This document shows, in pieces, positions 1 to 61,418 of a stretch of 64,000 nucleotides of DNA. Numbering within the stretch: the stretch's first letter is position 1; every line of letters starts with the position of its first letter. The notes beneath the pieces are model-generated. The model had not been told where the DNA came from. It saw nothing but the letters and a program-made list of their open reading frames with translations, and made no database searches. Location: NCBI GenBank assembly GCA_963700155.1, contig OY969472.1:176271-240270 (forward strand). The letters are read 5' to 3'. Position numbers and translations under genes: made by a program. This DNA is from an uncultured bacterium. GTDB lineage: Bacteria; Patescibacteriota; Dojkabacteria; J137.

Positions 1-1808
1 TTTCTAACTCTTTTTTCTAAAACAAATTTATAAATAAATACTAACAGTACTATAAAAAGTGCTATAAAAATAAGGTTTCGCAATAAATTTATTATATCAA
101 TTTTAAAAAATACATTTTTACTTGTACTCAAACTCGAGGAATCAATTTTATTCTCATCTACTCCAACCTTAATTTCTAAATCTTTAAATCCGTTATAAAG
201 ACTATCTGATTCTAAAAGATTCGAAAATGTAAAAATTGTAGCTTTGCCTGGTATTAAAGCTGGGTAAAAATTATCAGTTTTTAGTGCTGATAAATAATCA
301 TGACCATCAACTCCTATAGAGTTTAATTCTAAAAAATAATTTGATTTATTTTCTATACCCAAATCTGCTGAATAATAATCACCTGAATAAAGATCTCCAT
401 CTTGAGGTTTGAAATCAATATTAATTACTTTATTACTTTCCTCAATATTACTTCCATCTGAAATATTTACTGATACAGGATCTGAATCTACAGAGATCAA
501 TCCTAAGATATTATTGTAATCCATTCCTGGATGCCATCTCCCAAAAATTATTCTATCCATAGGTTCTTTAAAGTTATAATCAATGTTGAATACATCCTCT
601 AAAAAAGGATCAATAAAATATGAGCTATTACCATCATTTATTTCACACCATACATGAGGCTGCCGTTCATTCGATAATAATTCATTTGGAAGAAACATAT
701 ATCCATAAACAAGATTACCCTTATAACCTAGATACTCCGAAGCTGAAATAGCTAAATAACAATATTCTATTGAACTAAGTTTTGCAGACCCACCAAGTTT
801 GCTCCAGATATCACTAATCGATTTTATATCCAGTCTTTCGCTACTATAAGGTGTAAGATTTTCAACTAAATAATTATCAATCTCATTTAAATTTGTTTTA
901 AAGTCATTTTCTTTAGATATTTTTTTCAGAAGATTTTTAACAAAAAGACTGTCTGTATTCAAAGTCCAGTTATATTTTGGAATATTGAATTGCTGATTTG
1001 AATTATCTTGTATTAATGAAATATTAGAATCTAAATATACTTTGAAAGTATCACTTGGAGAAACATTTTTAACCGCAAAATTATCATTATACTCATCGTA
1101 AACACCTCCATCAACATTAGGAAAACTTCTATAATAGGTTGATTGATTTAAGTTAGATGGCAAATTAATTAAATATGCCTTATCACTATCCGAAACATTA
1201 TTAATTGAATAATTCAACTTTAAATCTAAACTAGCCTCTTCACCCCAAATAATTAATAGTGATTTAGATGTTTCAGCTGAAATTATTCCTGTATCATTTT
1301 GTGAAATATTTCTACTCGAAATAAAAGAGGTTTTAGGAAATTTTATAGGATACGTAATTGTATAATTTAAATTATCCAATTTAAAATTACTCTGAATTGC
1401 TGGCATATATAAATATTTCAAACCATACATATCTTTAACTAGTTTAGGAGCATCAAATTGAAGATTTAGAATCGTATCTTTGCTCAAATCTACTGTTAAA
1501 TTTTCAGTTTCAATTTTAATTATAGTTTGCCCATCAACACTTGTACTTGAGGAATCAATTTCTGAATCGTTAAGTTTTGCCGAAATACTATTCAAGTTTA
1601 TTTTGAATGGAACTGTAAACTGAAATCCAGTAAGAAAATTAACATTACTATTGTCTTTAAGATTAAATAAAAGATCAATTTTAGTATTCAGGTTATCTTC
1701 AATTTGAAGCTTTACAGAATTTAAATTTGAATCAGCATTTACTTTTAAAGTAAATACACTAATAAACGCGATTGAAATTATTAAAATACTTATTAACTTT
1801 TTAAACAT
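1..1808 (-). CDS. Secreted transglutaminase-like (Cys-His-Asp core) protein with a C-terminal TM anchor. Partial: the 3' end and stop codon lie beyond the window start.
   Basis: Absent from the ORF track because the stop is outside the window. By hand, the ATG (minus) is at 1806-1808 and gives MFKKLISILIISIAFISVFTLKVNA, a signal peptide. Frame continuity to position 1 is inferred from the absence of any other ORF here in the track and consistent spot translation. Around 600-700 it translates to NELLSNERQPHVWCEINDGNSSYFIDPF, preceded by EYCYLAISASEYLGY, which is the transglutaminase-like catalytic Cys, His and Asp spacing. Positions 3-95 encode LIFIALFIVLLVFIYKFVLEKRVR, a hydrophobic anchor. 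Confidence 0.6.
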   Translation of the reverse strand, partial: MFKKLISILIISIAFISVFTLKVNADSNLNSVKLQIEDNLNTKIDLLFNLKDNSNVNFLTGFQFTVPFKINLNSISAKLNDSEIDSSSTSVDGQTIIKIETENLTVDLSKDTILNLQFDAPKLVKDMYGLKYLYMPAIQSNFKLDNLNYTITYPIKFPKTSFISSRNISQNDTGIISAETSKSLLIIWGEEASLDLKLNYSINNVSDSDKAYLINLPSNLNQSTYYRSFPNVDGGVYDEYNDNFAVKNVSPSDTFKVYLDSNISLIQDNSNQQFNIPKYNWTLNTDSLFVKNLLKKISKENDFKTNLNEIDNYLVENLTPYSSERLDIKSISDIWSKLGGSAKLSSIEYCYLAISASEYLGYKGNLVYGYMFLPNELLSNERQPHVWCEINDGNSSYFIDPFLEDVFNIDYNFKEPMDRIIFGRWHPGMDYNNILGLISVDSDPVSVNISDGSNIEESNKVINIDFKPQDGDLYSGDYYSADLGIENKSNYFLELNSIGVDGHDYLSALKTDNFYPALIPGKATIFTFSNLLESDSLYNGFKDLEIKVGVDENKIDSSSLSTSKNVFFKIDIINLLRNLIFIALFIVLLVFIYKFVLEKRVR

Positions 1809-7882: not shown

Positions 7883-9370
7883 TTAATAATGTGTTTTTCT
7901 ATATTTATAAACAGTAATACCCAGAACTATAAACAAAATTCCGATTAATATATCTAATCTATCATTTATTATTGCTGTATTAGGTAAACTTCCCGATGCC
8001 GAAGTTAAACAACTCCCACCATTTGCAGCAGCACATCCAGTTGAACTAGATGAAGAACCAGTTGGACAAGATGTTCCACTTGCAGTAAATGGAGAGCACG
8101 CATCGCCATCTGCTATAGAATCAGAGCAAGCATAACATGTAATATTATTTGTACTTTCTGTTGGGCAACTTCCACCTGCTGCTGTTGCGCAAGCATCTGA
8201 AGTAGTTGTTGATCCTGCTGGACATGATGAACCACTAACTACAAAAGACTCACAAGTATTTGAATCTGTTAATGCTGATGTGCATCTATAACAAGTAGTT
8301 GTAATAGCAGGTTCTACAATAATAGCTTGGCAAGCTTGCTGTATTTGCGAAAGTATAGGATTACTACCATTGATTGTTGCATAATTATTCCCCTGATCTC
8401 TTGAGACACACTTCGGAGCCAACCAACCTGTGGGATTTCCGTTATATATTGTACTAGGTAAACAATAAGTTGTTGAACTTAAGCTTCCACCAGAAGTACT
8501 ACAACTTGATCCAACAACATAAACACAAGATGAACCCGTTTGACATAATCCTAAAGATGCACTACATGGATTACCGCAAGCATTTAATGAAGAACAGTCA
8601 CAATTTGCACCGGGGAGACTTTTCCCGGCTGGACAAGCGGCATTTTCACAAATGCCGCTTCTACAAACTGCTGTTCCTCCATTAGCTGGAGCTGCACAAT
8701 CTGAATCTGATGTACATGAACCACCACATTGAACTATGGTCCCTGAAACTAGACCGCCTCCATTTGAAGATCCGCCCCCAGTGTTACCTCCAGTCCCAGT
8801 ATCATTTCCTGTTCCTGTATCTGAGCCATTTCCACCCCCGCCAGATGTTGAGGTTGCTGCACAGCAAACCCCACCGCCGGTACAAATACCAGATTTACTA
8901 GTTGTACCAGTTGGACAAATAGTTAAACTGCTGTAACAAGTTCCACCTGCAAAGGCACATGTTGGACCAGTTCCACCACAACTTGCACCATTATCTATAT
9001 TACCTGGATTAATACAACTAGTTGGGCAAATACATCCATCAACATCTGTACAACTATTATTACAATTATTTATTAGAGTTTTTTTATCATCACTCCCTGA
9101 TGTACTATTCTTTATACAGGCACATTCAAGCAAGCCATCAGATCCTTCACTACCAATAGATTGACATGTACCTGGTGCACTTGATATTGTACAAGAAGAA
9201 CCAATATCCCCTCCAACACATCCCGATCCTGAACCTTGAGTACTACATTTGCCTGAAGTTATTGTTCCACCAATATTCGTTAAGTCTGTACCATTTAATT
9301 TAGAAATTATAAAGAAAGCTACACCTGCAAATAATGCTATAACTATGAGAATTATAATTGTACGTCTCAC
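7883..9370 (-). CDS. Cys/Gly/Ser/Thr-rich cell-surface protein with an N-terminal signal anchor and a C-terminal TM helix
   Basis: N-terminal hydrophobic IIILIVIALFAGVAFFII. C-terminal ILIGILFIVLGITVYKYRKTHY. About 12% Cys in CxxC/CxC-like arrays. Locally GC-rich relative to the flanks. Confidence 0.6.
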   Translation of the reverse strand: MRRTIIILIVIALFAGVAFFIISKLNGTDLTNIGGTITSGKCSTQGSGSGCVGGDIGSSCTISSAPGTCQSIGSEGSDGLLECACIKNSTSGSDDKKTLINNCNNSCTDVDGCICPTSCINPGNIDNGASCGGTGPTCAFAGGTCYSSLTICPTGTTSKSGICTGGGVCCAATSTSGGGGNGSDTGTGNDTGTGGNTGGGSSNGGGLVSGTIVQCGGSCTSDSDCAAPANGGTAVCRSGICENAACPAGKSLPGANCDCSSLNACGNPCSASLGLCQTGSSCVYVVGSSCSTSGGSLSSTTYCLPSTIYNGNPTGWLAPKCVSRDQGNNYATINGSNPILSQIQQACQAIIVEPAITTTCYRCTSALTDSNTCESFVVSGSSCPAGSTTTSDACATAAGGSCPTESTNNITCYACSDSIADGDACSPFTASGTSCPTGSSSSSTGCAAANGGSCLTSASGSLPNTAIINDRLDILIGILFIVLGITVYKYRKTHY

Positions 9371-11580: not shown

Positions 11581-12030
11581 TTAAGGTTTTATTCTTACGA
11601 TTGTAATTATTTTATTAAGACTAGGACGATAAATAATCGCAGTGTCTGGGTATATAATAATTAGATCGTCATTTTCTGCATCAGTATATAAGCTTGGGTT
11701 TTGTTTTTTGAGATTGTCTATATCAGTAATTTGGGCAACAGTTGGCTTTTCAGAAGAATCTACTTTGATAACATTAGAGATGCTTTCTTCTAATGATTGA
11801 ATGCTTGAATCATCAAAAGCATTTAAACTATTCAACTCTATTTTCTTTTGAACCAAAAATAATATTAACCCAAGAAAAATAACTACTATTAAAATAAGTA
11901 TTATCATTCTGTCTCGTTTAGTTTTTCTCCTTTGTTTTTCTAAATCAAAATTTAATTCTGGAAGAAATAATGCTTGCTTTAGAAGGGTTAATCTTTTTTT
12001 TAATCTTTTTAGGTAACTATTATCTGACAT
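11581..12030 (-). CDS. Hypothetical single-pass membrane protein, paralogous to the extracellular domain of 19644..20420
   Basis: Basic N-terminus, one TM (MIILILIVVIFLGLILFLV), then a domain with the motif ITDIDNLKKQNP..YTDAENDDLIIIYPDTAIIYRP that recurs in the other gene. Confidence 0.55.
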   Translation of the reverse strand: MSDNSYLKRLKKRLTLLKQALFLPELNFDLEKQRRKTKRDRMIILILIVVIFLGLILFLVQKKIELNSLNAFDDSSIQSLEESISNVIKVDSSEKPTVAQITDIDNLKKQNPSLYTDAENDDLIIIYPDTAIIYRPSLNKIITIVRIKP

Positions 12031-12080: not shown

Positions 12081-15000
12081 TTAATTTATTATTAAGTAGT
12101 CTATTTTAACATCAGTTTCTTGAGCTTTTTCAATTTCTATTGTAAAGCCTTGTCCAGGAATAATAGATTTTACTATTGGAAGTACAAATTGATTACTCGT
12201 TAGTTGTATATGAGAATCTTCTGTAACAGAAGTATTGTCAACTGTGATTTCAGTCTCTCCAGAAGCAATATTTGCTTGTCCAATGCTAGAGTTTGGTCCG
12301 GATTTAAGTGTTAATTTACCATTAGTATCTACACCTAAAAGTGTGTTACCACCAGCATCTAATAATTTAAATGCATTTTCATTTGAAACGATTTGCATTG
12401 TTAAATCAAATCCGGAAATATTTGTATATGATTTTGCTTCAATTGAATTATTTACAGAAAGTACTTTGTCTAATGATAATTTAGCATCAGAAATCTTTAG
12501 TAATTGTTCAAGTGGTGTAGACCCAGATTCAGAGTTAGGATTTAAATCATTATTTACTGCTAAACCATTACCAAGATAATTTAAATTTACAAACATTGTT
12601 ACTTCTCCGATACCTTGATCATCAAAATTAGTTAATGCCATTCCAATTGCTAAACCTGAGCCTTTTGATTTCATAGCTACCCCAGGTGTTGAAGAAGGGG
12701 CTAAATAATCTCCAGCTTCAATTGGTCCGTTTTCTGTTGTAACTTTAACCGGGACTCTCCCTGACAAAGCTACTGGAACTATTGAACCATTACCTAAAGT
12801 TTTACCATCATCAAGAACCATTCCAGGTCTTGTTGAAACTACTCCTAATACTTTTGCATCATCAGTTCCCTGACTTTTTCTAACCCCAAGTTCTAGTGTT
12901 GGATCTATTGAAACTACCTCACCTAAATTCAAATTATCAGTTGTAGGATAAATTTCTGCCAAGTCAGCACCTGAGGCTGCAATTTCCTGAATTGTTAACA
13001 TAACCTCATCTATTGTTGCATTATTTCCAAAAGAACCATTGGTATCCCTGGTTGAAGCACAAACAGTGTATGTTTGAGGTGAAGTCGAAGCTGGTGAATC
13101 AATTACCGTGAATGGTATCCAAATCTGCTGTATTGGATCAGTCATTGCTGCAACAAAATCATTACCGATTTGTAATCCTGAACAGTTTCCACTTCCTCTT
13201 CTGACTCTAATTCTGACTGCAGTTTCAGTATCATCTCCTCCAGAAGGATTGGTATATTCAATAGCTCCAGTAATTAATATTCTTTGTGATGTATTGTCAG
13301 GACTAATTGTTGGATTTGTTGGAGTTAATACTTCAATTTCTGTCCCCCATGTTGGACTAGTTCCCGGTGTTGGTGAGGTAATACTTGAATCATCTACAGA
13401 TTCTGTTGACGAATTTGCTGCAGGATTTGAATTAGCTCCACCACTAGTTCCGATAACAAGTGCCTCTAGTCCCCAGTCATAAATATTAGTGTCACCTGCT
13501 GCTACAGAAGCACAAAGTGAGTAACTCTGCGCAGAATTTCCTGGATTTGATGCAACACCATAAATATGAAGATTACCTACAGGAGTTGTGTTACTATTAT
13601 TTGTTGATATTGTATATGTAACTGTAGCATTTCCTACTGTTGTACCTGAACAGTTATTAGTTGTTTCAATTGTTAAAGTAAATGGCTGGTCAGTATTATT
13701 ACCACTATGTAAATCTGCAAAACCTGAGACATAAACATCATCTGTAGTAGAACCTGGAGTTACAGAAACAGTACCTAATGTTGTTTGTGAAGAACTTGAA
13801 ATGTTTATAAAGCTATCACTTGTCTTGTATGCTGCATCGTGCTGTAGATTTATTCCTGTTCCTCCGATACAATTTGTCCAAGCCCCATTTTCATAACATC
13901 TAAATTTGTTAGTATTTGAATTATAGTAAATTGCACCGTTGGTGCCGGTGGGGTCGCCAGAGGTATTTTTGACATCAACTTTCAATAAATCCGGAGTTGC
14001 TGAACCAGAACCACCGGCACCAATCTGTACTGATCCAGTAGTCCCGGTTCCTGCTACCTGTAAATTAATATTTCCTGTTCCAGATTGAATTGTTGTTGTT
14101 GATGTTGATGTTGCTGAACCAAGCACTAATGTTTTTGCTGCAGCACCAGTTCCTACATTTATTGTTTCAGCACTTGCATCTCCACCAATTGTAATCGAGC
14201 CTGTAGTCCCAGACTCTATTGTTAAAGCTCTTGCAGCAGCAGTTGTAATATCTGTTCCAATTGTCCCGTTAAATTGTATCCCATTTGTAACTGTTCCTGC
14301 AGTTCTAGTAATGTTTAAAGCATTCGTAAGAGTTCCACCGGTAGTTTGATTAATCAACAAAGCATTAGTCAATGTTGTAGTACTTGTTAAGACTTCCGAA
14401 GTCCCAGCAATTGTTGTAAATGCTCCAGTAGATGGTGTTGTAGTACCTATTGCTGTTCCGTTTATTCCGGTTGAGGTAGTATTAATATTCGATGATGTTA
14501 ATGTTAACAAGTTTGCTCCAGTTGATATACTTGAAGCTGATAAACCTGAAAGTGCTAATGCTCCTGATGTTGATGTTAGATTGATAGCACCTGTTGTAAC
14601 TGTAAGACCAGTTGCAAATGTTGGATTTGAAACTGTCGCAAGTGTTATTGTTCCAGACCCGTTATTTGTTGTTGTTATATTTGTACCTTGTGCTAGTAAT
14701 AATGTTCCACCTTGGGATATCGTGCTATTTGTTCCGCTAGATGCTGAAGCAGTAAATATGCTGCCTCCAGATGTTAAACAAGTTGCACAAGTTAATGTTA
14801 ATCCAGCACCACCTAATGTTGCTGAACCCCCTCCTCCTAATGGTCCAGTAGTCCCTATAGTTACACTTGAATTTGCAAGTTGTGAATTTGTTATTCCTGC
14901 TGTTGCAGAAAGATTTGTTGTTGTTAGTCCTGAAATTGCAACATTAGCAGCAGCTGTTAACCTTCCTTGAGCATCAACTGTGTAAGTTGGGATATTTGTT

Positions 15001-18000
15001 GCACTTCCATAACTTCCTGCGGATACTGCAGTATTAGCTAAGTTTATAGTTGCTGATCCTCCTAACGCTAATGGTGAACCCCCTGTTATACTTATACCTG
15101 TTCCATTATTTAGAGTTACACTTGAATTTGCAAGATTAGCATTTGTTATTCCTGCACTTCCTGACAGATTGGAATTAGTTAATCCTGTTATTGTATTTGA
15201 ACCAGCTGCAATAGTTTTATTTGTTAGTACATCAATCGATGTAGGAGTAATATACCCTGCATCATTTGTCCATTGAGAAATATTTGCTGAAGTGAAGTTT
15301 GATGTTGTTAATCCTGAAATAGCAACACTTGCAGCGGCAGTTAACCTACCTTGAGCATCAACTGTAAATGTACCAATTGTTGAACCACTTCCATATGATC
15401 CTGGGGTAACAGTAGTATTTGCAATATTAATCGTTACAGTACCACTTCCATTATTAACTGTTGTGATTCCTGTACCTTGTGCTAAGGTAAGCGTTCCCCC
15501 ATCTGAAATTGTAGAATCAGAACCAGAACCTGCTGTAAGAGTAAACGATCCACCTCCGCTGGAACCTATGCAATCAACCCAGGAACTATTTTCAAAACAT
15601 CTAAATTTATCATTTGTAGTATTATAATAAATTCCACCGTTTGCCCCTGTAGGATCATTTGTCCCATTATCCAATACTAGTAAATCAGGAGTGTCTGTCC
15701 CACTATTCCCAATTAGAACCTGGCCGCTAGAACCAGTACTTCCAATTGTAAAATTTGCATTACCTGTACCTGATTTGATATTTAATGCTGTTGTAGTTGT
15801 ATTATTGCCTATTGTTATAGTTTTTGCATTTGTACTTGTTCCCAAATTTACCGCCCCTGTTGTACCTGAATCTAAAGTTAAGGCAGTTGCATTACCTGAT
15901 TTAACCGTTAAAGCTCCTCCTCCTGTGACAATTGCTCCTGCAGCTCCTAAATTAATCGCTGTAGCTGCTCCACCAACATTTAGTGTAGTAACATTTGTAT
16001 TGAATAAGTTTGCATTAGTAGCAGTTGTTGTTAAATCACCACCATTAACTCCAATATCACCTGCTGTAATAATGTTAAAGGCTCCAGTCTGATTCCAATC
16101 TTCAGTTAAATCTCCAAGGGAGACTGTATTTCCACTATTATTAAGTCCACTTGCAAAAGTAAAACTTGCGTTAGCTGAAAGTTGTACCCATCCACCAATA
16201 TGTGTTGAATATGTATATGAGATATCATGGTAAGCACTATTAGTATTTCCTACATAAAGTGCATCATTGTTGTTTGGAGATTCTGTTGTATATGTAAAAC
16301 TTCCTGGAGAACCACCAGAGATATGAATTTGATAATCTTTAAGTCCGGAAAGTGAACCTGCAGGAGTTGTACTTGAATTAAATGCAACTCCAAAACTATC
16401 ACCAACTGTTAGTGACTTTATTAAGACCCAAGTTGGATCTTGATATTGAACAAGATCACCAGGTGCAAATCCTGACCATACTCCTGTATTTCCACCAGTA
16501 TTAATCAAATAAGTATCATTATTTACTGGTGATCCAGGAGGAGTGCTTGCATCCTCTATTACATTTATTTCTTCTAACGGGTTATGCCATACAAGACCTG
16601 TAGCAATGTTATCAACATAAGTTTTTACAGCATTTTGAGTAGGATATAAAACGTCTGATGTTCCTAATGTTGTTGATGTCGATTTATTAGCAACATTTTC
16701 AGGGGTAAAGCCTAAAGCATCTTGCTTTCCATTAAACGTATTCCAGTCAGTTGATGTTAAAAATCCTGTTAAGGTAGAACTGGCAGCTTGGTCACCATCA
16801 TAATTCAGTGAAATAGCACCACTAGAATCAATAGTAGCATCTCCACTCAGAACCCTAGTAACCCAAGATGTACCGCTTCCAATTAATAAATTACCAGCAG
16901 TTGGAGTTGTTAAACCTAAAGTATTCCCATTAATCTTAGCTACAGTTGTAGCACCTTGTGTTCCTGTAACATCTCCGGCTAATGAACCTGTAAAATTTGT
17001 TGCAGATGTAGCTGTCGAAGCATTCCCTGAGACATCTATTGAATAGGTACCTGTGTTTATAACAGTGGAATAATTTCCAGCAGTAAGATTTGTTGCTGTT
17101 AAATTTGTTATTGTATTAAGTGATGCATTAATAGTTTTATTAGTTAATTCTTGTGTTGAACTTGCAGTGACATAACTAGAATCATTTGTCCATTGTGAAA
17201 TATTTGAAGATCCAAAATTGCTTACTGTTAAACCAGATATCCCAACATTACTTGCAGCAGTTAGTCTACCTTGAGCATCAACTGTATAAGTAGGAATAGT
17301 CGCTCCACCACCATAACTTCCAGCTGTCACAGTTGTATTTGCTAGGTTAATTGTTATTGTGCCTGATCCGCCGTTTACAGTTGTAATACCTGTGCCTTGT
17401 GATAATGTTAATGATCCCCCCTGTGATATGGTACTGTTGCTTCCACTACTAGCTACCGCAGTAAATAGGCTTCCTCCACTAGTTATACATGTAGTACAAG
17501 TTAATGTTAATGCAGAACCTCCAAGAGAAACTGACCCACCTCCTCCGAGTGGTCCAGAAGTATTTACAGTTACACTCGAATTTGCTAATTGAGAATTTGT
17601 TATTCCAGCTGTACCTGAAAGGTTTGTTGTTGTTAAACCTGCAATTGCTGTATTACTTGCAGAAGTTAACCTACCTTGCGCATCCACGGTAAATGAAGGC
17701 ACAGTAGTTCCACTACCATAACTCCCCGCAGTAACTAAAGTATCAGATAGATTAACCGTTGCTATACCTCCAAGAGCTAATGAACTACCTCCAGTAACAC
17801 TAATTCCTAAACCACTGTTTAATGTCACATAAGGAGTTGCTAAATTAGCATTTGTTATTCCCGCACTTCCAGATAAACTCGTATTAGTTAATCCCCCAAT
17901 TGCTACATTACTGGCTGAAGTCAACCTTCCATAAGTATCAACAGTAAATACTGGTACAGAATTCGAAGTCCCATAAGTAGCTGCAGTAATTCCTGATGGA

Positions 18001-18659
18001 CTTAACGCTGAACAAGATGGACAATCAATTGTTAATGAACCACCCAAACTAACTGAACCACCACCGGTTATTGGTCCTGATGTTTTTATATTTAAACTAG
18101 AATTCGCCAATTGTGAATTGGCTAACCCGAAAATACTATTTTGATCAAAATTTGAACCATTACCATTTGCTCCAACTATAGCAATGTCTCCAATATTAGT
18201 TCCGGGTACTCTTCCTTGAAGATACTCAGCATTTAAATTATTAATCAGACCAGTATCAGGGATTATAAGATATGAACTAGAAATAAGCTTAAGTGGTACT
18301 GTTGGGCTAAGTGTACTTGTTGGAGTTTCAGACTGTTGGCCACTATTATTACTTCCAAACCCACCTGTTCCTCCTGTACCCCCAGTCCCTCCATTATTAT
18401 TTGAAGAGCTTCCAGATGGATTAATCTGTAATACCTGGTTTGTATCTAATATAGTAACTTTTGTAACTTGATTGTAAGCATCTGGATTTACTGGTTTAAG
18501 CAAATCTAAAGATACTCTTCCAACAGGTTGAAATATACTTTGCAAAAAAGATGGCTGCTGCTCTTCAACACCATTTGTAACACCACCATTAGTATAGCCA
18601 AGTAAGTCAGAAGTTTGAGTCTGGGAAGAAATTAAACAATAAAAATAATAACAGTACAA
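12081..18659 (-). CDS. Giant (>=2192 aa) Gly/Thr/Ser/Asn-rich repeat protein, adhesin- or fibre-like. The start is probably wrong and it is likely fused to 18607..18978 by a +1 frame change.
   Basis: At least five copies of an approximately 100-aa module (..SGSAGITNANLANSSVTLN.G.GISITGG..LALGG.ATINLANT.V.AGSYGS...IPTYTVDAQGRLTAA.NVAISGLTT.N). Two copies of a G.IYYN..N.KFRC(F/Y)EN..W..CIG motif resembling phage tail-fibre-type repeats. A non-repetitive C-terminal domain. The track start is a TTG, and no Met occurs in the first roughly 700 residues. No signal peptide. Confidence 0.75.
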   Translation of the reverse strand: MYCYYFYCLISSQTQTSDLLGYTNGGVTNGVEEQQPSFLQSIFQPVGRVSLDLLKPVNPDAYNQVTKVTILDTNQVLQINPSGSSSNNNGGTGGTGGTGGFGSNNSGQQSETPTSTLSPTVPLKLISSSYLIIPDTGLINNLNAEYLQGRVPGTNIGDIAIVGANGNGSNFDQNSIFGLANSQLANSSLNIKTSGPITGGGSVSLGGSLTIDCPSCSALSPSGITAATYGTSNSVPVFTVDTYGRLTSASNVAIGGLTNTSLSGSAGITNANLATPYVTLNSGLGISVTGGSSLALGGIATVNLSDTLVTAGSYGSGTTVPSFTVDAQGRLTSASNTAIAGLTTTNLSGTAGITNSQLANSSVTVNTSGPLGGGGSVSLGGSALTLTCTTCITSGGSLFTAVASSGSNSTISQGGSLTLSQGTGITTVNGGSGTITINLANTTVTAGSYGGGATIPTYTVDAQGRLTAASNVGISGLTVSNFGSSNISQWTNDSSYVTASSTQELTNKTINASLNTITNLTATNLTAGNYSTVINTGTYSIDVSGNASTATSATNFTGSLAGDVTGTQGATTVAKINGNTLGLTTPTAGNLLIGSGTSWVTRVLSGDATIDSSGAISLNYDGDQAASSTLTGFLTSTDWNTFNGKQDALGFTPENVANKSTSTTLGTSDVLYPTQNAVKTYVDNIATGLVWHNPLEEINVIEDASTPPGSPVNNDTYLINTGGNTGVWSGFAPGDLVQYQDPTWVLIKSLTVGDSFGVAFNSSTTPAGSLSGLKDYQIHISGGSPGSFTYTTESPNNNDALYVGNTNSAYHDISYTYSTHIGGWVQLSANASFTFASGLNNSGNTVSLGDLTEDWNQTGAFNIITAGDIGVNGGDLTTTATNANLFNTNVTTLNVGGAATAINLGAAGAIVTGGGALTVKSGNATALTLDSGTTGAVNLGTSTNAKTITIGNNTTTTALNIKSGTGNANFTIGSTGSSGQVLIGNSGTDTPDLLVLDNGTNDPTGANGGIYYNTTNDKFRCFENSSWVDCIGSSGGGSFTLTAGSGSDSTISDGGTLTLAQGTGITTVNNGSGTVTINIANTTVTPGSYGSGSTIGTFTVDAQGRLTAAASVAISGLTTSNFTSANISQWTNDAGYITPTSIDVLTNKTIAAGSNTITGLTNSNLSGSAGITNANLANSSVTLNNGTGISITGGSPLALGGSATINLANTAVSAGSYGSATNIPTYTVDAQGRLTAAANVAISGLTTTNLSATAGITNSQLANSSVTIGTTGPLGGGGSATLGGAGLTLTCATCLTSGGSIFTASASSGTNSTISQGGTLLLAQGTNITTTNNGSGTITLATVSNPTFATGLTVTTGAINLTSTSGALALSGLSASSISTGANLLTLTSSNINTTSTGINGTAIGTTTPSTGAFTTIAGTSEVLTSTTTLTNALLINQTTGGTLTNALNITRTAGTVTNGIQFNGTIGTDITTAAARALTIESGTTGSITIGGDASAETINVGTGAAAKTLVLGSATSTSTTTIQSGTGNINLQVAGTGTTGSVQIGAGGSGSATPDLLKVDVKNTSGDPTGTNGAIYYNSNTNKFRCYENGAWTNCIGGTGINLQHDAAYKTSDSFINISSSSQTTLGTVSVTPGSTTDDVYVSGFADLHSGNNTDQPFTLTIETTNNCSGTTVGNATVTYTISTNNSNTTPVGNLHIYGVASNPGNSAQSYSLCASVAAGDTNIYDWGLEALVIGTSGGANSNPAANSSTESVDDSSITSPTPGTSPTWGTEIEVLTPTNPTISPDNTSQRILITGAIEYTNPSGGDDTETAVRIRVRRGSGNCSGLQIGNDFVAAMTDPIQQIWIPFTVIDSPASTSPQTYTVCASTRDTNGSFGNNATIDEVMLTIQEIAASGADLAEIYPTTDNLNLGEVVSIDPTLELGVRKSQGTDDAKVLGVVSTRPGMVLDDGKTLGNGSIVPVALSGRVPVKVTTENGPIEAGDYLAPSSTPGVAMKSKGSGLAIGMALTNFDDQGIGEVTMFVNLNYLGNGLAVNNDLNPNSESGSTPLEQLLKISDAKLSLDKVLSVNNSIEAKSYTNISGFDLTMQIVSNENAFKLLDAGGNTLLGVDTNGKLTLKSGPNSSIGQANIASGETEITVDNTSVTEDSHIQLTSNQFVLPIVKSIIPGQGFTIEIEKAQETDVKIDYLIIN

Positions 18660-18978
18660 TTATTATGTATATTAACGCGATTATTCCTAGAATAATCGCG
18701 GCTTTCTTTAGTCTCTTTAAAAGCTTAACTGTTCTTCTCTCCATCTGAAAATCTGCAAGTTTTGCGCGCTCTGCAATAGAAATTCCTTTATTTGCATTAA
18801 TTCTGGCAATATCTTCTTTTGTACTAACATGCATTCCTTGCAAAGTTAATTCTCTTAATTCTTTTACACTAATTCCTAACAATCTTGCTGCTTCTTCTTC
18901 AGGGAGACTTAGATTATTGTTTTGTCTAGAAGTTGGGTTATTATTTAATTGATTTTTTAAATTTGAAGTTTGTTCCAT
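18607..18978 (-). CDS. Small protein with an HTH-like segment and a C-terminal TM helix. Probably the true N-terminus of the giant protein.
   Basis: Starts at an ATG. EEAARLLGISVKELRELTLQGM is helix-turn-helix-like. The C-terminal AAIILGIIALIYIIIVLLLFLLFNFF is a TM. Its last 53 nt overlap the giant ORF in another frame. Confidence 0.55.
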   Translation of the reverse strand: MEQTSNLKNQLNNNPTSRQNNNLSLPEEEAARLLGISVKELRELTLQGMHVSTKEDIARINANKGISIAERAKLADFQMERRTVKLLKRLKKAAIILGIIALIYIIIVLLLFLLFNFFPDSNF

Positions 18979-19106: not shown

Positions 19107-19529
19107 CTACATATTATCCTCAGTTTTTTTTTCTTCCTGGTCTAAGTTTTTCTTTTCATCATCTAATAACTTTTTGACCATTTGAAAAATGACCTCGAGA
19201 CTTGAATTTGCTTTTTCCAGAAAATATGAAGGGTGATCTTTTATGGCCTCAGTAATAATGCTAGTATCAGGCTCTAAGTTGGTAAGAATAATTACTTTAA
19301 CTTTTGAACCAAATTCCTCATCTGCCCTTAAATCAGTCAACATTTTCATACCATCCATTTCTGGCATTAATATGTCAGTTATAATTAAATCAGGATGTTG
19401 CTTTAAAGCTATATCTAAACCTACCTTGCCATTTTCAGCAGTCATAACTTCATAACCTAAATCTTTTAAACCATTTTCAAGCACCTCACTTAAAGAAAGT
19501 TCATCTTCAACAACTAATATTCGCTTCAT
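19107..19529 (-). CDS. Single-domain response regulator (CheY-like receiver)
   Basis: ILVVEDE...DLIITDILMPEMDG carries the phospho-acceptor Asp. ILTN and a downstream Lys follow. There is no output domain. Confidence 0.85.
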   Translation of the reverse strand: MKRILVVEDELSLSEVLENGLKDLGYEVMTAENGKVGLDIALKQHPDLIITDILMPEMDGMKMLTDLRADEEFGSKVKVIILTNLEPDTSIITEAIKDHPSYFLEKANSSLEVIFQMVKKLLDDEKKNLDQEEKKTEDNM

Positions 19530-19643: not shown

Positions 19644-20420
19644 TTAAACCTTTTGATATGTGGTTGAGAAATTAGCCGAAGTGACAAAGCTTTGACTATC
19701 TGAATTATATACTGCAATCTTACCTGCATCACTAAAAATAACGATTATGTCATTTTTTCTAGCCAGTTTATAAAATTCTTTATTTGATTCACTTTGATTT
19801 CTTAATTGATCAGGATCAGCTATAACAGACAACTGAGGTATTTCATTAGAATCTTCAGAAATCAGTTTTTCAGATTTTGCTAATTTAATTATATTATTAA
19901 CAAGAATTTGTTGATTGTTTTTCTCAATAATACTAGGACTATCACCTTCATAAATAACTTTTCCCTCATCTTTTCGATAGATTATTATATTATCATTGTA
20001 AACAAGTACAATATCTCCATTTTTCGCATCTTTATATACTTGCTCATTTATAACATTGGAAGATTTCAATTGATCAATATCTGAAACTGTAGCAACTACA
20101 GGAATCTCTGTATCTGGATATTTGTTTTTAGCCTTAGAAAGAACTTCATTTATTAATAACTGATTTTGTATATTTTTAAAAAACTCAATTGGATTATATA
20201 CCGATAGGAGTGTGATTACTTGTAGCACAATAATTATAAACAACAGTCCCTTAAGAGTTCGAAGTTTAATTAAATTCTGTTTAATATTAACTTTTGAGAG
20301 ATTTAAATGAAATCTATTCTTATATTCTAAATTTTTTGATTGTTTGTCTATAGGTGTTGATTTGTATTTTAAGTTTTTTCCCAAAGTCTTAAATTCGCTT
20401 TTTATATTTGTTTTGATCAT
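19644..20420 (-). CDS. Hypothetical single-pass membrane protein with two copies of the domain found in 11581..12030
   Basis: The track ORF extends to 20477 but overlaps tRNA-Leu. It is trimmed to the ATG at 20418-20420 (MIKTNIK...). TM is LLFIIIVLQVITLLSV. Repeats are VATVSDIDQLKSS...GDIVLVYNDNIIIYRK and LSVIADPDQLRN...NDIIVIFSDAGKIAVY. Confidence 0.55.
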   Translation of the reverse strand: MIKTNIKSEFKTLGKNLKYKSTPIDKQSKNLEYKNRFHLNLSKVNIKQNLIKLRTLKGLLFIIIVLQVITLLSVYNPIEFFKNIQNQLLINEVLSKAKNKYPDTEIPVVATVSDIDQLKSSNVINEQVYKDAKNGDIVLVYNDNIIIYRKDEGKVIYEGDSPSIIEKNNQQILVNNIIKLAKSEKLISEDSNEIPQLSVIADPDQLRNQSESNKEFYKLARKNDIIVIFSDAGKIAVYNSDSQSFVTSANFSTTYQKV

Positions 20421-20437
20421 CAGCTTTGAAAAATATA

Positions 20438-20519
20438 TACCGAGGGAGGGACTCGAACCCTCACACCCTAAGGGCAAAGGATTTTAAGTCCTTCGTGTCT
20501 ACCATTCCACCACCTCGGC
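20438..20519 (-). tRNA. tRNA-Leu (anticodon TAA), type II with long variable arm, no encoded CCA
   Basis: Reverse complement is GCCGAGGTGGTGGAATGGTAGACACGAAGGACTTAAAATCCTTTGCCCTTAGGGTGTGAGGGTTCGAGTCCCTCCCTCGGTA. It has a 7-bp acceptor stem, anticodon loop CTTAAAA, a long variable arm, the GGTTCGAGTCC T-loop and discriminator A. Confidence 0.9.
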
Positions 20520-22453: not shown

Positions 22454-22975
22454 TTAAGATAGAATTATTTTAAAGGCTTCATTAAGGTAGTTAATTTCAC
22501 TATTTGAGTAACTTCTTTTTTTAAGCATTTCAATAACTTGTGCTACCAAGGATCTTATAAGTTCGTTAGACTTATAGAGATCTGATAAGGCGTATCGTGC
22601 AGATGATACAACACTCCTATATAAAATTTTTGTACTTTCATCAGTTTCCATAGAGCCAGGGACAATAACCTCAAGTAGAGCAAAAATTAACAAAATAGCA
22701 ATATTCTCAACTTGAGGTTTGAGAGTTTCGTTACTTTCTAAACTCACTTTTGAATCCTTTACAAGGTCAGCTTGTTCTTTTAGTTCACCTATAGCTAATA
22801 TTAAACTTCCGTTATGCTCTTTTTCTAGACCTTCTACCATTTTATTTAGCCTTTTTACATCCAACCAAGGGGAAAATAATTCATCTACAATTACAGTTTT
22901 ATACTCATTAAAATTCCTTTTCTCTTCACTTTCTCTAAATAATTTCATAAATAACAAAACTAAGGTAAAAGCCAT
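22454..22975 (-). CDS. Hypothetical protein
   Basis: ORF only. Overlaps the upstream gene by 16 nt, consistent with co-transcription. Confidence 0.45.
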   Translation of the reverse strand: MAFTLVLLFMKLFRESEEKRNFNEYKTVIVDELFSPWLDVKRLNKMVEGLEKEHNGSLILAIGELKEQADLVKDSKVSLESNETLKPQVENIAILLIFALLEVIVPGSMETDESTKILYRSVVSSARYALSDLYKSNELIRSLVAQVIEMLKKRSYSNSEINYLNEAFKIILS

Positions 22976-24810
22976 TTAAATCCTAGCAGATTTTCTAAGA
23001 AAGTGTCTAGTCCAGATGGAGTTTTGTTTTTTCTTTGTCGATTTGAGGTTGAATTATTATTAATTTCAAGTTCATATTTATTTTTCAGGTCGTTCAAAAC
23101 CCCCTTATCATAAGCATCTTTGATTACATTCCCATTCATACCACAGTTAGGGCAATTTTGATCCAAGTCGCAAACATCTATCGATCCTTCTCCACAAATT
23201 GGACATTTTATATGTCTCTCAACTTTTTTAGTCTCTTTATTATATTTATCAAAGAACTCAAGAATCTCACCTTTCTTCCCAATTACTTTATCAAAATTGC
23301 CCACAAGAGTATTATTACCAACGCTTTGACTATTTCGAGATTCTGAATTTTCAGACGCTGGTAAAGTTTTATTTTCAGAATTAATATTTTTTATTTGAAT
23401 ATTTACAACACCACATTCTGCCCCTTCTGAAATCTCAGAAATATTAACTTTTCCATCTTTAGAATTTTTACCAACATCAGTATTTTGGGATACGAAACCA
23501 GAAACTGTATTACCTGAGACTACACTTTGTAATAAGTTAGAATTGATTTTATCTTGATCCTCAATAGATATATTTTTATGTTTTGGCATATAAGTCATCC
23601 AAGCTGCATCAAGAACTTGTTGATATCTTTCTGAGAATTTTTGTAATTCAGTTGAATTTAAAGCAGCATTAGGAAGATTTGCCATAAGACTCTGTATAAA
23701 TGGATGAATAGTTAAGCCGATTGCATCTATTTTTGGTTTTATTAAATCATCATTAAGTCTCAAAATATCTAGTCCCCCTAAAGAATTTATTAAATTTAGT
23801 CTTTCGAGCAAATCTTCTTCTTCTATTCCCCTGATAATAAAAGTTTCGGATAAAATCTTATTTTGTGAAGATTTTAAGTTCCCAGTTTGAGTGGCAATCG
23901 AGAGTTCTCGCAGATTTTGTAGATCAAAAGCAAGTGCCTCTAGATTATTTGGCAATGAAAAGATTCTCGATTGCCACCCGTTTTTTGAATATTTATAAAT
24001 TCTCAACATAATATCCTTTTGATGTTTATAAATTGGTGGACTAAATTCAATAAATAAATCACCATTTTGAATTTGGACATCTTTCAATCCAGAGAGCTGT
24101 GAATATAAATAATTCAAGGTATTGCTATCAAAATCTTCTTCTAACAACAAGTTCAAAAGTTCTTCAGAATTTTTATATTTTAATTCCCATAATTTTAATA
24201 AATTCAAAAGTTCTACTAACTCTCTTTCATTATGTTTTACAGTAAAACACCTTATAGCAGAATCAATCATCATTTTATGTTTTTTTTGATCAAAATCGTT
24301 TTTAAAAATTCTTCCTCGCAGACTATTTTTATTCATAAATCTATTAAATTTATTTACTGTCTCACCTGAATAATTTTCTAAAATTTGATATGAATCCGCA
24401 TCTTTTAAAATAGATTCAAAATCATATAGCTTGCCTTCTTTTAGCTGAGTAAGAATATCCTGTTCAATTTGAGAATAAATTTCCCAGTAGCTTTCTGAAA
24501 TATTTAAATATTTTAACTTATCTTTGAAATTCAATTTCGATAAGTCAGCTGAATTTTCTAAAAGCTTTGACCAATAATCCCATTCAGAAAAAATATTTAT
24601 TAAATCTTCTAGTGAAAGTTCACTATTTCTAAAGTTATCTCCTAAAATTTGCAACAATAATCTGAATTTATCTTTTATAGATAAGGATAAACTATATCCT
24701 TTATCTTTAATTTCGAATGACTCTTCATATGTAGGTTTTAACCTTTGTAAAAAAGATTCAATGTATCTATCTAATAATGTAGAATTATCTACTGATTCAA
24801 CAAATTCCAT
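22960..24810 (-). CDS. Hypothetical 616-aa protein with a C-terminal Cys4 zinc-ribbon
   Basis: Long helical, Leu/Asn-rich ORF. The C-terminal CPICGEGSIDVCDLDQNCPNCG is a zinc-ribbon. Confidence 0.5.
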   Translation of the reverse strand: MEFVESVDNSTLLDRYIESFLQRLKPTYEESFEIKDKGYSLSLSIKDKFRLLLQILGDNFRNSELSLEDLINIFSEWDYWSKLLENSADLSKLNFKDKLKYLNISESYWEIYSQIEQDILTQLKEGKLYDFESILKDADSYQILENYSGETVNKFNRFMNKNSLRGRIFKNDFDQKKHKMMIDSAIRCFTVKHNERELVELLNLLKLWELKYKNSEELLNLLLEEDFDSNTLNYLYSQLSGLKDVQIQNGDLFIEFSPPIYKHQKDIMLRIYKYSKNGWQSRIFSLPNNLEALAFDLQNLRELSIATQTGNLKSSQNKILSETFIIRGIEEEDLLERLNLINSLGGLDILRLNDDLIKPKIDAIGLTIHPFIQSLMANLPNAALNSTELQKFSERYQQVLDAAWMTYMPKHKNISIEDQDKINSNLLQSVVSGNTVSGFVSQNTDVGKNSKDGKVNISEISEGAECGVVNIQIKNINSENKTLPASENSESRNSQSVGNNTLVGNFDKVIGKKGEILEFFDKYNKETKKVERHIKCPICGEGSIDVCDLDQNCPNCGMNGNVIKDAYDKGVLNDLKNKYELEINNNSTSNRQRKNKTPSGLDTFLENLLGFKWLLP

Positions 24811-25010
24811 TCAATTTGAATTATATTTATTCATGCTCGTGAACTCTCTATCGAGAATGCAGAAATTTGCTGGTATCCGGACTTTCAAAAATGATTACCG
24901 TTGCGGCACAGTGAAGGATTTTCACCTTCTTCCCCAGCGCCTATCATCTAAGTTTAGACTTCGGCTTCTGTGATATAAACAATAGTTTAAATTTTAAAAA
25001 TATTCAAGAA

Positions 25011-58456: not shown

Positions 58457-59707
58457 CTATCTACTTTTTCCTTCAATACACCACTTAATGTCAAATTCAA
58501 TCTTGGATATAAGTTCTTTTCCTTTATTAACGAAATCAAAAGGGGTGATTTGATCATCTTTTGGTAATGTTGATACAGGAACTAGTTCAACTATCTCATC
58601 AAAAATATCCTCAGATAATGAACATAGTACAAAATTTCTTTGGTTCAAATAAATATTTACTAATAATCTATTTAATACATTGTTCAGAAGAACTATTTGG
58701 TTTTGCTTTAATGAACTCAAAATTATTCCTACTGTATCTCTTTCTTTTTCGTTTTTGTGTAAAAGTAAATAAAGTTCTTTTAGAACTTCAATTAGTTCTC
58801 TAGGATTTCCTGTAAGATCAATCCTTCTAAAATAAGATTCAATTTGAGCTGCTTCGTCCTCATAACCTTCTTCTGGTTTAACTTCATCCGGAATAGCTGG
58901 TTCTCTTACTATTTCTTCAAGGAAAGCAAAGATATCTAAATCATTAAATGTCCTCATAAACTCAGTGTTTCCATTTCTTTGCTGAAGTTTAGAAGTTCTA
59001 TCTCTAAATTCACTATTTTTTTGCCTTAAATTTGAATATACTTTTGCAACAAATTCTGTTGCGTTACCAAAAATATAGCTTGTAGAAGACCTACCATTTT
59101 TAGTAAGAATATCTCTAACTATCATTCCATAAGTCTTATCATTATTTACAAATTTTATTAATATTTTTTCAATAACAATTGTTTTGACATCATCAGGCAA
59201 CAATTCCCATACAGAAGGCTTTAGTACAGAACTGACAAGAAGTATTTCAATGATTCTTATGTCTAAATTATTTAAAGGTTCTCTCTCGATTGTAGTTTCA
59301 TAAAGTTTAGAGAGGAGCTCTTTAAATCCAGGAACTTCAGAATAAGATCTTAGTAATGCTGGGGAAGATATAACTCTTTCTAATTCAACAGTACTTTGAT
59401 ATCTTACATGCGAAATATCATCATAAATTTCAACAAGCTGATTCTTTTTTTCTCTTAGTGCTTCAAGTTGTTTTGCTGAAGAGTTAAAAACTGATTGTCC
59501 ATTTTTTAATTTTATTGCTTCAGCTCTTTGATTTTTATATTCAACATTATATCTAACTGAAGCTACATTCAAATTAGCATCCCATATTGCAAAAGGAAAA
59601 GCTTTAACCTCTTCTGGCAAAATATCAACAATCACAGGATTGAATAACGCTTTATTAAGAATCATTAGAACTTTTTCTCTGAAACCCTTTAGGATTATTA
59701 CTTTCAT
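58457..59707 (-). CDS. Hypothetical 416-aa protein
   Basis: ORF only. The start may be the internal Met at about 59665. Confidence 0.45.
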   Translation of the reverse strand: MKVIILKGFREKVLMILNKALFNPVIVDILPEEVKAFPFAIWDANLNVASVRYNVEYKNQRAEAIKLKNGQSVFNSSAKQLEALREKKNQLVEIYDDISHVRYQSTVELERVISSPALLRSYSEVPGFKELLSKLYETTIEREPLNNLDIRIIEILLVSSVLKPSVWELLPDDVKTIVIEKILIKFVNNDKTYGMIVRDILTKNGRSSTSYIFGNATEFVAKVYSNLRQKNSEFRDRTSKLQQRNGNTEFMRTFNDLDIFAFLEEIVREPAIPDEVKPEEGYEDEAAQIESYFRRIDLTGNPRELIEVLKELYLLLHKNEKERDTVGIILSSLKQNQIVLLNNVLNRLLVNIYLNQRNFVLCSLSEDIFDEIVELVPVSTLPKDDQITPFDFVNKGKELISKIEFDIKWCIEGKSR

Positions 59708-61418
59708 ACAAATTCTTTAAAGTTATGAAAATATTCCTGATTAATTCTAAATTAGAGGGAACAAGGGCAAATCTTTCAAGATCCTTGAAAGATTTGCCCT
59801 CAGGATCTCCCAAAAAATATGCATTCAACATATTAATAGCATCATCAACCTCAAGTGGGATCTGATCTTCAACTGATACTTTAGCTTTCTCAGTTTCTTT
59901 TTCTCTCCATTTATTATTAAAGAAATTTCTAAACCTTGAAACTGGAATCTTGTTAGCAACTTTCATAAAGTTTGAAGTAGATTCTCTAGATTCTACTTCC
60001 TGCTCAACAGCTCCTTTTCTATCATTCAATTTTGCGAATTTTTGATTAACAGCCTCAAGATCACTCCCTATTGTATTTGATTTTTCAACGTCTTTATCAA
60101 GCAATTTTGCGTTTACTTCTGACTTTACTTCAGGATTAATAAGCAAAATTGCTTTCACTAAATTCTGTAAGTTTGCAGTCCTCTTGCCTTCATTATCTGG
60201 AGTTCTATCAACAATAAGCAGTACAACATTTGCTAACGATTCTATACTTTGAGTATTTAAAAAATTTAAGATTAATTCCAAAGGATCCTGTTTTAAACTT
60301 CTTAAGGACAAACTTAATAATCTTTCAAAAGTATAAAAGCTTGCAGGATCGTTTATTAGAGATAAAAGCTTTTGCCCAACTTGATTATTAAAATTATCAG
60401 ACCAAACTTTTGGGGATTGTTCTTCACTGTCTTGTAAATCTGAAACTATAACTTGAATTTCTCTATTAGTTGAATTTGCTGATAAATTATTAACTTCTCC
60501 TAAAATTTTTATTTCTAACTCTTCATCAAATTTTTCAATTGTTTCTGTTTCTGGTTCTTTAGCAACTTCATTTTCAGATGCAACTTCTTCTACTTTAGAT
60601 TCTAGTAACATTGATTCAGATATGTCTTTTACAGTCTGTAATATTTCCGGCTCATCTTTGACTTTCTCTCTAGTCATTTCAACAAAATTTTCTATCTGGG
60701 CTTTTGGAAACAAATTCTTATCTACAGTCTCCAATAACTTATTAAAGAATGATTTCCTTGTTTGGAATAATACCGATAAAAATTTGAAAAGTTTAAAATT
60801 TCTAGGACTATTCCTAAAATACAAATACATTATTGTATCTGCAATTTCTGGTTCTGAATCTATTAATAAAGGATCTCCTGCTAGTGTATATAAGACTTTG
60901 TATAGGAGCTTGCCTAATAAAAGTCCTTCAAATTTTTCTCTATTATCAATAAGATATCTTATTACTATATTTGCAAAAAATAAATTTTTAGAAATAGATG
61001 ATGCTAAATTTACGTCCAAAAGTGTTATATATTTTTGAGAATCATAAAATTCCATATCAAACTTACCATAAGCTTCGGCAAATCTTTCAATAAGATCAAG
61101 ATCTTTTATTTCAGTAAAATCAAAATTAGGAGCTCCTTTTATTAATGCAGAGACAATTTCAGGAAAATTATCTAAAGTATAAACTGCTTTTTCTTTTCGT
61201 TCACAAAGTGTATTTAACAAATCTATTAAAAAACTTAATTGATCTTCATTCAATGGGGAATTAATTTTCTCAAAATAACTTGAAATTTCATCAAGTGCTG
61301 AATTACCAACATCGATATTAGAAGAAAATAAATTATTCTTTAATGATGATAGATCTATTGTGTTAACAGCTATATTAGGAGCTTCATTTACTTCTGCTAT
61401 TGCAGGATTATCAGCCAT
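59655..61418 (-). CDS. Hypothetical 587-aa helical, acidic protein
   Basis: ORF only. Confidence 0.45.
   Translation of the reverse strand: MADNPAIAEVNEAPNIAVNTIDLSSLKNNLFSSNIDVGNSALDEISSYFEKINSPLNEDQLSFLIDLLNTLCERKEKAVYTLDNFPEIVSALIKGAPNFDFTEIKDLDLIERFAEAYGKFDMEFYDSQKYITLLDVNLASSISKNLFFANIVIRYLIDNREKFEGLLLGKLLYKVLYTLAGDPLLIDSEPEIADTIMYLYFRNSPRNFKLFKFLSVLFQTRKSFFNKLLETVDKNLFPKAQIENFVEMTREKVKDEPEILQTVKDISESMLLESKVEEVASENEVAKEPETETIEKFDEELEIKILGEVNNLSANSTNREIQVIVSDLQDSEEQSPKVWSDNFNNQVGQKLLSLINDPASFYTFERLLSLSLRSLKQDPLELILNFLNTQSIESLANVVLLIVDRTPDNEGKRTANLQNLVKAILLINPEVKSEVNAKLLDKDVEKSNTIGSDLEAVNQKFAKLNDRKGAVEQEVESRESTSNFMKVANKIPVSRFRNFFNNKWREKETEKAKVSVEDQIPLEVDDAINMLNAYFLGDPEGKSFKDLERFALVPSNLELIRNIFITLKNLYESNNPKGFQRKSSNDS

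Follow-up and report, generated by a model that had tools for sequence, protein, structure and literature searches.

A predicted membrane-anchored giant-fibre gene of Dojkabacteria, probably split by one surplus base

Giant membrane proteins of bacteria belonging to the Candidate Phyla Radiation (CPR) are thought to serve host recognition and attachment, as described for Vampirococcus lugosii (PMC8080830). Here we analyse a 64-kb stretch of the Dojkabacteria contig OY969472.1 (the window; all coordinates are window positions), in which a 123-amino-acid (aa) and a 2192-aa open reading frame (ORF) overlap on the minus strand. Judged by sequence comparison, these ORFs are the two halves of one gene, which would encode a helix-turn-helix (HTH), a single transmembrane (TM) helix and a giant extracellular fibre. 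With a probability of about 0.85, this gene has been broken by a non-programmed insertion of one nucleotide (nt), which arose by recent mutation or else is an error in the consensus. The encoded protein resembles the CPR giant surface proteins (PMC8080830) in its very large size, its predicted membrane localisation and its occurrence in a reduced genome. Those proteins carry WD40, PKD, integrin or fibronectin-type domains, unlike the HTH-TM-fibre arrangement found here. No description of this architecture, or of its pairing with a response regulator, was found in the literature searched. The frame change itself is ordinary, and the by-product of modest interest is an undescribed family of HTH-TM-giant-fibre proteins paired with a response regulator.

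RodZ, ToxR and CadC are built on a similar plan: a DNA-binding fold at the N-terminus in the cytoplasm, one TM helix, and a C-terminal domain outside the cytoplasm. The DNA-binding fold is of XRE type in RodZ and an OmpR winged helix in ToxR and CadC, whereas here the HTH is MerR/HTH_17-like and what lies outside is a fibre exceeding 2000 residues in place of a small sensor domain. No sequence homology to RodZ, ToxR or CadC was detected. With the MerR superfamily (MerR, CueR, SoxR, GlnR, RacA) the likeness consists in the HTH Pfam matches of family members and in a long helix that follows the HTH as in MerR dimers, but the effector-binding domain is absent here and the long helix runs on into the TM segment. 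Phage tail fibres and tailspikes (phi29 gp12; Peptidase_S74 and Peptidase_G2 proteins) share the Thr/Gly/Ser/Asn-rich repeats, and the best, though weak, fold match of the C-terminal domain is to phi29 gp12 (TM-score of 0.34); in contrast to them, the present gene lies in a cellular genome, has an N-terminal TM anchor with an HTH in front of it and gives no Pfam match above cut-off. As to the state of the gene, the closest counterparts are frameshift-split genes, that is young pseudogenes and consensus indels, in which there is likewise a surplus base, both halves are open, a motif is divided over two frames and homologues are uninterrupted. Nothing essential is different here; what stands out is the size of the gene and the placement of the break to within 9 nt by homologues.

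Two reading frames of one gene

The giant ORF (18659..12081, minus strand, 2192 aa) has a TTG as the sole start at its 5' end, and public annotation starts the deposited protein there (P0001, which begins MYCYYFYCLISS). Its first Met is residue 1839, leaving 1838 residues free of Met; the original prediction had reported a Met-free beginning of some 700 residues, which is right as to the absence of Met and far too short as to its extent. The only other in-frame near-cognate starts are TTG 18545 and TTG 18503, neither of which gives a signal peptide. There is no Shine-Dalgarno (SD)-like sequence upstream of the TTG at 18659, and no 19-residue Kyte-Doolittle window (KD19) of the giant ORF exceeds 1.6, the maximum being 1.43 overall and 0.67 in the first 60 residues. 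The TTG start, the missing signal peptide or hydrophobic N-terminus and the coordinates of this ORF thus agree with the original prediction, as does the presence upstream of an ATG-initiated 123-aa ORF (18978..18607, minus strand, TGA stop at 18609-18607) that ends in a TM helix encoded by the overlap region. This helix reaches a KD19 of 3.47 over residues 95-113; of the 15 residues that precede it seven are Lys or Arg, and of the 15 that follow the reconstructed junction none. The two ORFs overlap by 53 nt (18659..18607), the giant frame being +1 relative to the small one (18978-18659 = 319 = 3 x 106 + 1), and both have been deposited in public collections as two separate proteins from the same 1,140,724-bp contig. 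The parts of the gene, as we read them, are as follows.

18622..18978, minus strand: frame-A portion at the 5' end of the gene, codons 1-119, from the ATG (18978-18976) to an invariant Pro codon CCA (18624-18622); profile match of 71 bits, blastp.
12081..18617, minus strand: 3' part of the gene in frame B, 2178 codons, the first being CAA (Gln) at 18617 and the stop lying at 12083-12081; profile match of 158 bits, homologues.
18607..18621, minus strand: out-of-frame tail of the small ORF (D-S-N-F-stop), a product of the break; homologues have x-Q-T-[AS]-x here, which the window encodes in the +1 frame.
18618..18659, minus strand: spurious 5' extension of the giant ORF (TTG 18659 ... LYCYYFYCLISSQT), TM-coding DNA in the wrong frame and without counterpart in homologues.

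With the giant ORF as query, 141 homologues were found at E<=1e-5, mostly giant proteins of Patescibacteria, with Dojkabacteria, Shapirobacteria, Saccharibacteria and Parcubacteria among the named sources. The N-termini of the best of them (P0002-P0008, P0011-13, P0015, P0025, P0028 and P0054) contain, in this order, an HTH (..AAKLLGISVE.L..LEKQG..), the motif 'I.RIK', an 'EA..V...IQRE' helix, a TM helix and P-x-Q-T-[AS]-x-[WF]-[LF]-G. The small ORF is homologous to precisely this N-terminal part, namely the first 110-125 residues of the giant ORF's best homologues (blastp: P0004 3e-15, P0002 7e-15, and 12 more), and most of these alignments stop at residue 119, the invariant Pro. A conceptual fusion of the two ORFs aligns collinearly across the junction, query residues 25-330 matching residues 30-335 of P0004 (E 1.6e-65), with a corresponding match to P0002 at E 5.9e-61. 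Moreover, 28 distinct homologue N-termini (14 database proteins, 5 GTDB loci and 9 metagenome loci, from Dojkabacteria, Levyibacteriota, Microgenomates and other Patescibacteria) are each encoded in one uninterrupted frame through the junction. The GTDB and metagenome loci were found via a family alignment (A2) and the pattern NLN[SA][QE][YF][LI]QG. A word-indexed protein search with the fused N-terminus (289 aa) gave 0 matches at E<=1e-3, the homologues surfacing only with the whole giant ORF, and single-protein pattern scans of genome and metagenome contigs with the fused N-terminus gave no match, the source genome itself included.

The genomic context is in agreement with this. The gene preceding the small ORF is the following.

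19107..19529, minus strand: stand-alone response-regulator receiver gene, separated by a 128-nt gap from the ATG of the small ORF downstream of it; Pfam Response_reg, 6.4e-21.

In at least 14 distinct relatives a receiver gene likewise lies upstream of the start of the open frame, at about 30-230 nt (more than 400 nt in one of them, locus L003); a PAS histidine kinase is encoded further upstream in L001, L002 and L003. The ATG of the small ORF is therefore at the position where the giant gene begins in relatives, i.e. shortly after the receiver gene. Since the small ORF matches the N-termini of the giant ORF's own best homologues, the fusion is collinear and the homologues are single frames, since the giant ORF has neither TM helix nor signal peptide and the small ORF provides a positive-inside signal anchor, and since the small ORF's ATG takes the place of the giant gene after the response-regulator gene, we treat the two ORFs as one gene. 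The original prediction, too, had seen in them a single type II membrane protein with a +1 frame change between its parts, and had proposed looking at whether orthologues are one ORF or two genes with an independent start and secretion signal for the large protein: in 28 of 28 there is a single ORF, so that this check does not speak against one gene.

The same data bear on whether a small membrane-anchored HTH protein and a giant protein starting from TTG 18659, or further downstream, might be two genuinely separate genes. Both ORFs are open and filed as two proteins, and a TTG is available at the 5' end of the giant one. However, the N-terminus started there (MYCYYFYCLISS) corresponds to out-of-frame TM-coding DNA and has no counterpart in homologues, a ribosome-binding sequence is absent at the TTG, and a giant ORF without a hydrophobic segment would have no Sec route out of the cell. 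The family motif, too, would be split in the middle of P-x-Q-T over both frames. A phmmer search with the 123-aa ORF against 1.84 billion representatives returned only 8 other proteins, six of which are of 667-1665 aa. Four of the 8, including both short ones (125 and 205 aa), were read in sequence, and all run in frame through P-x-Q..G; the two short ones look truncated or chimeric. This exhaustive search thus revealed no stand-alone family of about 120 aa, with HTH and TM helix, ending at the junction, and we consider two separate genes highly improbable.

Position and nature of the frame break

A profile was built from the 28 homologue N-termini, the window sequence being left out. It matches the small-ORF frame at positions 5-110 (71 bits, E 1.3e-23), the match ending ...FFPD, and the giant frame at positions 128-324 (158 bits), with the frame switching right after P119. 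Each base from 18662 to 18605 was then removed singly, and the translation from the ATG was scored against this profile, with the following results.

Deletion at 18622-18618: 237.0-236.5 bits.
Deletion in the A3 run, 18616-14: 235.1 bits.
Deletion at 18613-11: 231.2 bits.
Deletion in the C3 run, 18625-23: 228.4 bits.
Deletion at the stop, 18610-09: 227.1 bits.
Deletion in the T5 run, 18645-41: 220.4 bits.

Only the small-ORF frame encodes the invariant Pro119 and the nearly invariant Phe115, and only the giant frame encodes Q-T-S-D-L-L-G-Y; on this sequence evidence the surplus base is located in a 9-nt interval.

18614..18622, minus strand: frame break, one surplus base within AGACTCAAA; deletion scan, codon alignment with L001 and L002.

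In the window four nucleotides (GACT) stand between the Pro codon and the Gln/Thr codons, where homologues have exactly one codon: relatives read CCA/CCT-TTG-CAA/CAG-AC[TA] (P-L-Q-T), and the window reads CCA-GACT-CAA-ACT. A 2-nt deletion in place of a 1-nt insertion is ruled out by the single residue between Pro and Q/T in every homologue, and the scan scores rule out the T5 run, the C3 run and the TGA stop as the site of the break. As reconstructed, the junction reads ...LFNFFP[D/T/A]QTSDLLGYTNGGVTNGVEEQQPSFLQ..., and the stub has the C-terminus ...FFPDSNF. From the ATG, translation would stop four codons past the break and give the 123-aa product, and gene callers would restart at a meaningless TTG.

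The original prediction had placed the frame change at a T-rich, potentially slippery run. The stretch, TTATTATTTTTATTG, is present at about 18650-18636 (18636..18650, minus strand), but a frame change in it scores 220.4 bits vs 237.0 at 18622-18618. Such a placement loses F115 and P119 and falls 16.6 bits, or about 1e5-fold, under the best position, and we reject the run as the slippery site. The same result weighs on phase variation or transcriptional slippage at this run (18650-18636) as a means of toggling the fibre on and off. A T5 run in T-rich context does lie inside the overlap, and surface proteins are classic phase-variable targets. However, slipped-strand events and RNA-polymerase slippage usually need runs of 7-9 or more, beside which T5 is short, a frame change there would remove the nearly invariant F115 and the invariant P119, and the mapped site has no run longer than three (A3 and C3). 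Of the readings considered, we hold this one to be the most remote.

Programmed +1 ribosomal frameshifting near 18622-18607, by which both a 123-aa HTH-TM stub and a full-length fibre would be made, was also weighed. In its favour, the direction needed is +1 and a 0-frame TGA lies 3 codons past the mapped break, as at the +1 sites of prfB (RF2) and of Listeria phage PSA, in which a 0-frame UGA is also close by; TTC TGA C is superficially like the CUU UGA C of prfB. The downstream ORF is perfectly intact, and a significant hairpin that is unique to this genome lies upstream. In contrast to the prfB and PSA sites, there is no codon at the mapped site that could re-pair in the P-site in +1 (CCA to CAG, GAC to ACU, UCA to CAA), the break lies 3 codons before the stop, and the frame is unbroken here in every homologue (0 of 28 with a break). 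If ribosomes shifted at the stop itself, the product would read FFPDSNFDLLGY and score 10 bits under the best position, since it is the +1 frame, upstream of the stop, that encodes the conserved Q-T-S. The codons on either side are in common use (TCA 30.8, AAC 11.9 and GAC 7.9 per 1000). Neither an SD-like element upstream nor a downstream stimulator was seen, the downstream 121 nt folding no better than shuffles (z = +1.5), and the upstream hairpin, at 55-80 nt, is beyond the reach of known 5' stimulators. Programmed frameshifting is thus very unlikely at this locus. Among the three options that the original prediction had left side by side, the indel or assembly error survives, whereas programmed +1 frameshifting and phase variation at homopolymers both lack the features expected of them.

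The hairpin deserves separate mention.

18676..18700, no strand assigned: inverted repeat, 11 bp without mismatch and with a 3-nt loop, in the DNA that codes for the TM helix and 55-80 nt 5' of the break; fold scan.

This inverted repeat codes for the palindromic peptide AIILGIIA. There is a second AU hairpin at about 18645..18666, and together with the 11-bp repeat it makes the mRNA 18720..18600 fold at z = -3.4; no such structure is present in the corresponding stretches of L001, L002 and L003 (z = +0.67, +0.87 and -0.14). We regard the hairpin as a curiosity that leaves a small probability on recoding. One form which this might take is that the surplus base is real, has become fixed and is passed over by non-canonical +1 recoding, possibly aided by the hairpin, so that mostly the 123-aa stub and a regulated minority of full-length fibre would be made; this, too, is highly improbable in our estimate.

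A non-programmed insertion in a single giant-fibre gene therefore remains the reading that we prefer. Three points weigh against it. The 2178 codons downstream of the break are fully open, which fits a recent or artefactual break and equally a decoded one; scans of genome and metagenome contigs yielded no relative above about 40% identity; and a significant, lineage-specific hairpin lies 55-80 nt upstream of the break. Within this reading, we lean towards a real insertion in the sequenced population as opposed to a consensus error (about 55:45), since the site lacks long homopolymers and the window is otherwise clean. The window has the character of a cellular genome (30% GC, with tRNAs, ribosomal proteins and aminoacyl-tRNA synthetases), and about 27 other Pfam-recognisable genes in it are full length over their models, so that the break is isolated. 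General assembly indel noise is ruled out, as PNPase, the CCA-adding enzyme, Def, ThrRS, AsnB, SufB, RadC, an ABC transporter trio, L21, L27 and others fully cover their Pfam models. The ORF pair 59655..61418 and 58457..59707 was considered as a second frameshift and looks instead like the usual short overlap of a stop with a start, an internal ATG lying at about 59665.

Disruptions were also encountered in two relatives. In L003 (Logan contig SRR24236059_792760, 5677..5700) codon 8 of the HTH region is an in-frame TAG in place of the Gln codon (CAG) of relatives, and because of it the protein from this locus (P0009) has been called from an internal Met; a topoisomerase IB gene on the same contig has likewise been called in two pieces. 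In L026 (OBEQ010191096.1, about 614..656) the frame changes about 40 residues past the TM junction, which may be an error given that the contig is short (1.2 kb). As both genes are disrupted elsewhere than the window gene, they argue for sporadic damage or errors over a conserved recoding site.

If the insertion is real, a membrane-anchored HTH stub would be made and no fibre exported, and the gene would be a very young pseudogene or a strain variant, one case of strain-level loss of the fibre. In either event the record can be corrected: the 123-aa and 2192-aa hypothetical proteins represent one disrupted gene, which should be annotated as a frameshifted coding sequence or pseudogene, or mended if the consensus is in error.

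The reconstructed protein and its family

The reconstructed protein has about 2298 aa. Its proposed layout is about 90 cytoplasmic residues with a MerR-type HTH, the TM helix, the sequence P-x-Q-T-S-D-L-L-G-Y, about 2170 extracellular residues and a beta-rich C-terminal domain. The features of the N-terminal part are these.

18841..18900, minus strand: predicted helix-turn-helix, residues 27-46 (EEEAARLLGISVKELRELTL), MerR/HTH_17 type, predicted cytoplasmic; AlphaFold helices 27-34 and 38-46, predicted local distance difference test (pLDDT) 72-85.
18625..18705, minus strand: signal-anchor TM helix, about residues 92-118 (AAIILGIIALIYIIIVLLLFLLFNFF), preceded by KLLKRLKK; KD19, charge bias, model helix.

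Hydropathy and charge pattern predict a single-pass type II topology (N-in, C-out), there being one helix of at least 19 residues, about 90 residues before it and a positive-inside bias. The TM helix would act as a signal anchor that puts the fibre outside, and the HTH would remain in the cytoplasm. As to the HTH, of 15 aligned family N-termini, 10 match MerR_1 in Pfam, 7 match MerR and 5 match HTH_17, with a best E of 1.5e-7. The window's own HTH is divergent and gives only a sub-threshold match to HTH_17 (E 0.069, 13.9 bits vs a cut-off of 27); about 10 residues of the wing region are missing from it, as they are from the closest relatives, P0004 and P0002. The family profile has weak matches in the PDB to GlnR, RacA, SoxR and CueR. 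An AlphaFold model of the 123 residues has helices at 27-34, 38-46 and 54-62 and a long helix at 68-117 (pLDDT up to 98) that passes into the membrane, and Foldseek matches to this model, all at E >= 0.79, are mostly HTH regulators, many of the MerR family (NmlR, MerR, BmrR, TipAL, RacA). DNA binding by the HTH is accordingly putative.

The cytoplasmic part varies within the family. L023 and L024 are without HTH and have MGKISASEAAQVGIGIQRE... at their start, as though the HTH core had been lost in frame, and P0010 and P0014 have a different short cytoplasmic N-terminus and retain the TM helix and P-x-Q-T motif. HTH-TM-fibre genes clearly of Patescibacteria type also occur on the contigs of the GTDB loci L005, L008 and L009, in metagenome-assembled genomes labelled Methylomirabilota, Sulfotelmatobacter and Pseudomonadales, and these odd labels are probably the result of mis-binning.

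The ectodomain is rich in Thr, Gly, Ser and Asn, with repeats like those of tail fibres; the motif VD.[QY]GRL occurs five times (as VDAQGRL in 4 of the 5) and IYYN twice. Searches of the giant ORF against Pfam, NCBIfam, PHROGs and PDB sequences gave nothing above threshold, the sub-threshold Pfam matches being to K1-lyase_C (24 bits vs a cut-off of 27) and Phage_cement (18 bits). Among the homologues there are some with PF13884, PF11962 or collagen repeats, and one bears the name 'tail fiber domain-containing protein'. Near the C-terminus there is one conserved unit.

12639..12971, minus strand: conserved beta-rich C-terminal domain (GADLAEIY...GVVSTRPG...ALSGRVPVKV...PGVAMK); 30 or more giant homologues at 35-52% identity.

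The core of its model has a pLDDT of 73-90, and the best Foldseek match in the PDB is 3suc, the pre-mature gp12 of phi29 (E 5e-3, probability 1.0, TM-score only 0.34). A weak phmmer match (E 0.83) was obtained to 3gqh, a C-terminal fragment of gp12, and the profile of the C-terminal family matched nothing in the PDB. These model-based matches are suggestive of an autochaperone of the phage phi29 gp12 type, a possibility that we offer as a lead only.

By analogy with the CPR giant membrane proteins (PMC8080830), the fibre is probably a structure for surface recognition or adhesion. The tethered HTH and the conserved response-regulator neighbour suggest that the protein may work with the adjacent response regulator and be linked to gene regulation or to DNA anchoring. 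In episymbiotic CPR bacteria the family could provide a physical link between a structure that contacts the host and DNA or transcription.

Other features of the window

The pair formed by the response-regulator gene and the giant gene is flanked by two genes, 19644..20477 and 11581..12030 (both minus strand), that are paralogues of each other. Each carries a TM helix at the N-terminus, and they share a C-terminal domain (..V..ITDID.LK..N...Y.DA.NGD.I..Y.D..IIYR..) without Pfam match; in Dojkabacteria, locus L001 has a homologue of 55% identity at 6845-7390, upstream of its histidine kinase and response-regulator genes. Further away, a 616-aa ORF (22960..24810) has a cobalamin riboswitch directly upstream (24851..24999, minus strand; 43 bits, which exceeds the gathering score); the ORF has no Pfam match and carries a C-terminal CxxC...CxxC motif. 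Finally, the region 7883..9370 (minus strand) contains a 495-aa ORF of low complexity that is rich in Cys, Gly, Ser and Thr, has no Pfam match and has hydrophobic segments at both ends; it probably encodes another surface protein.

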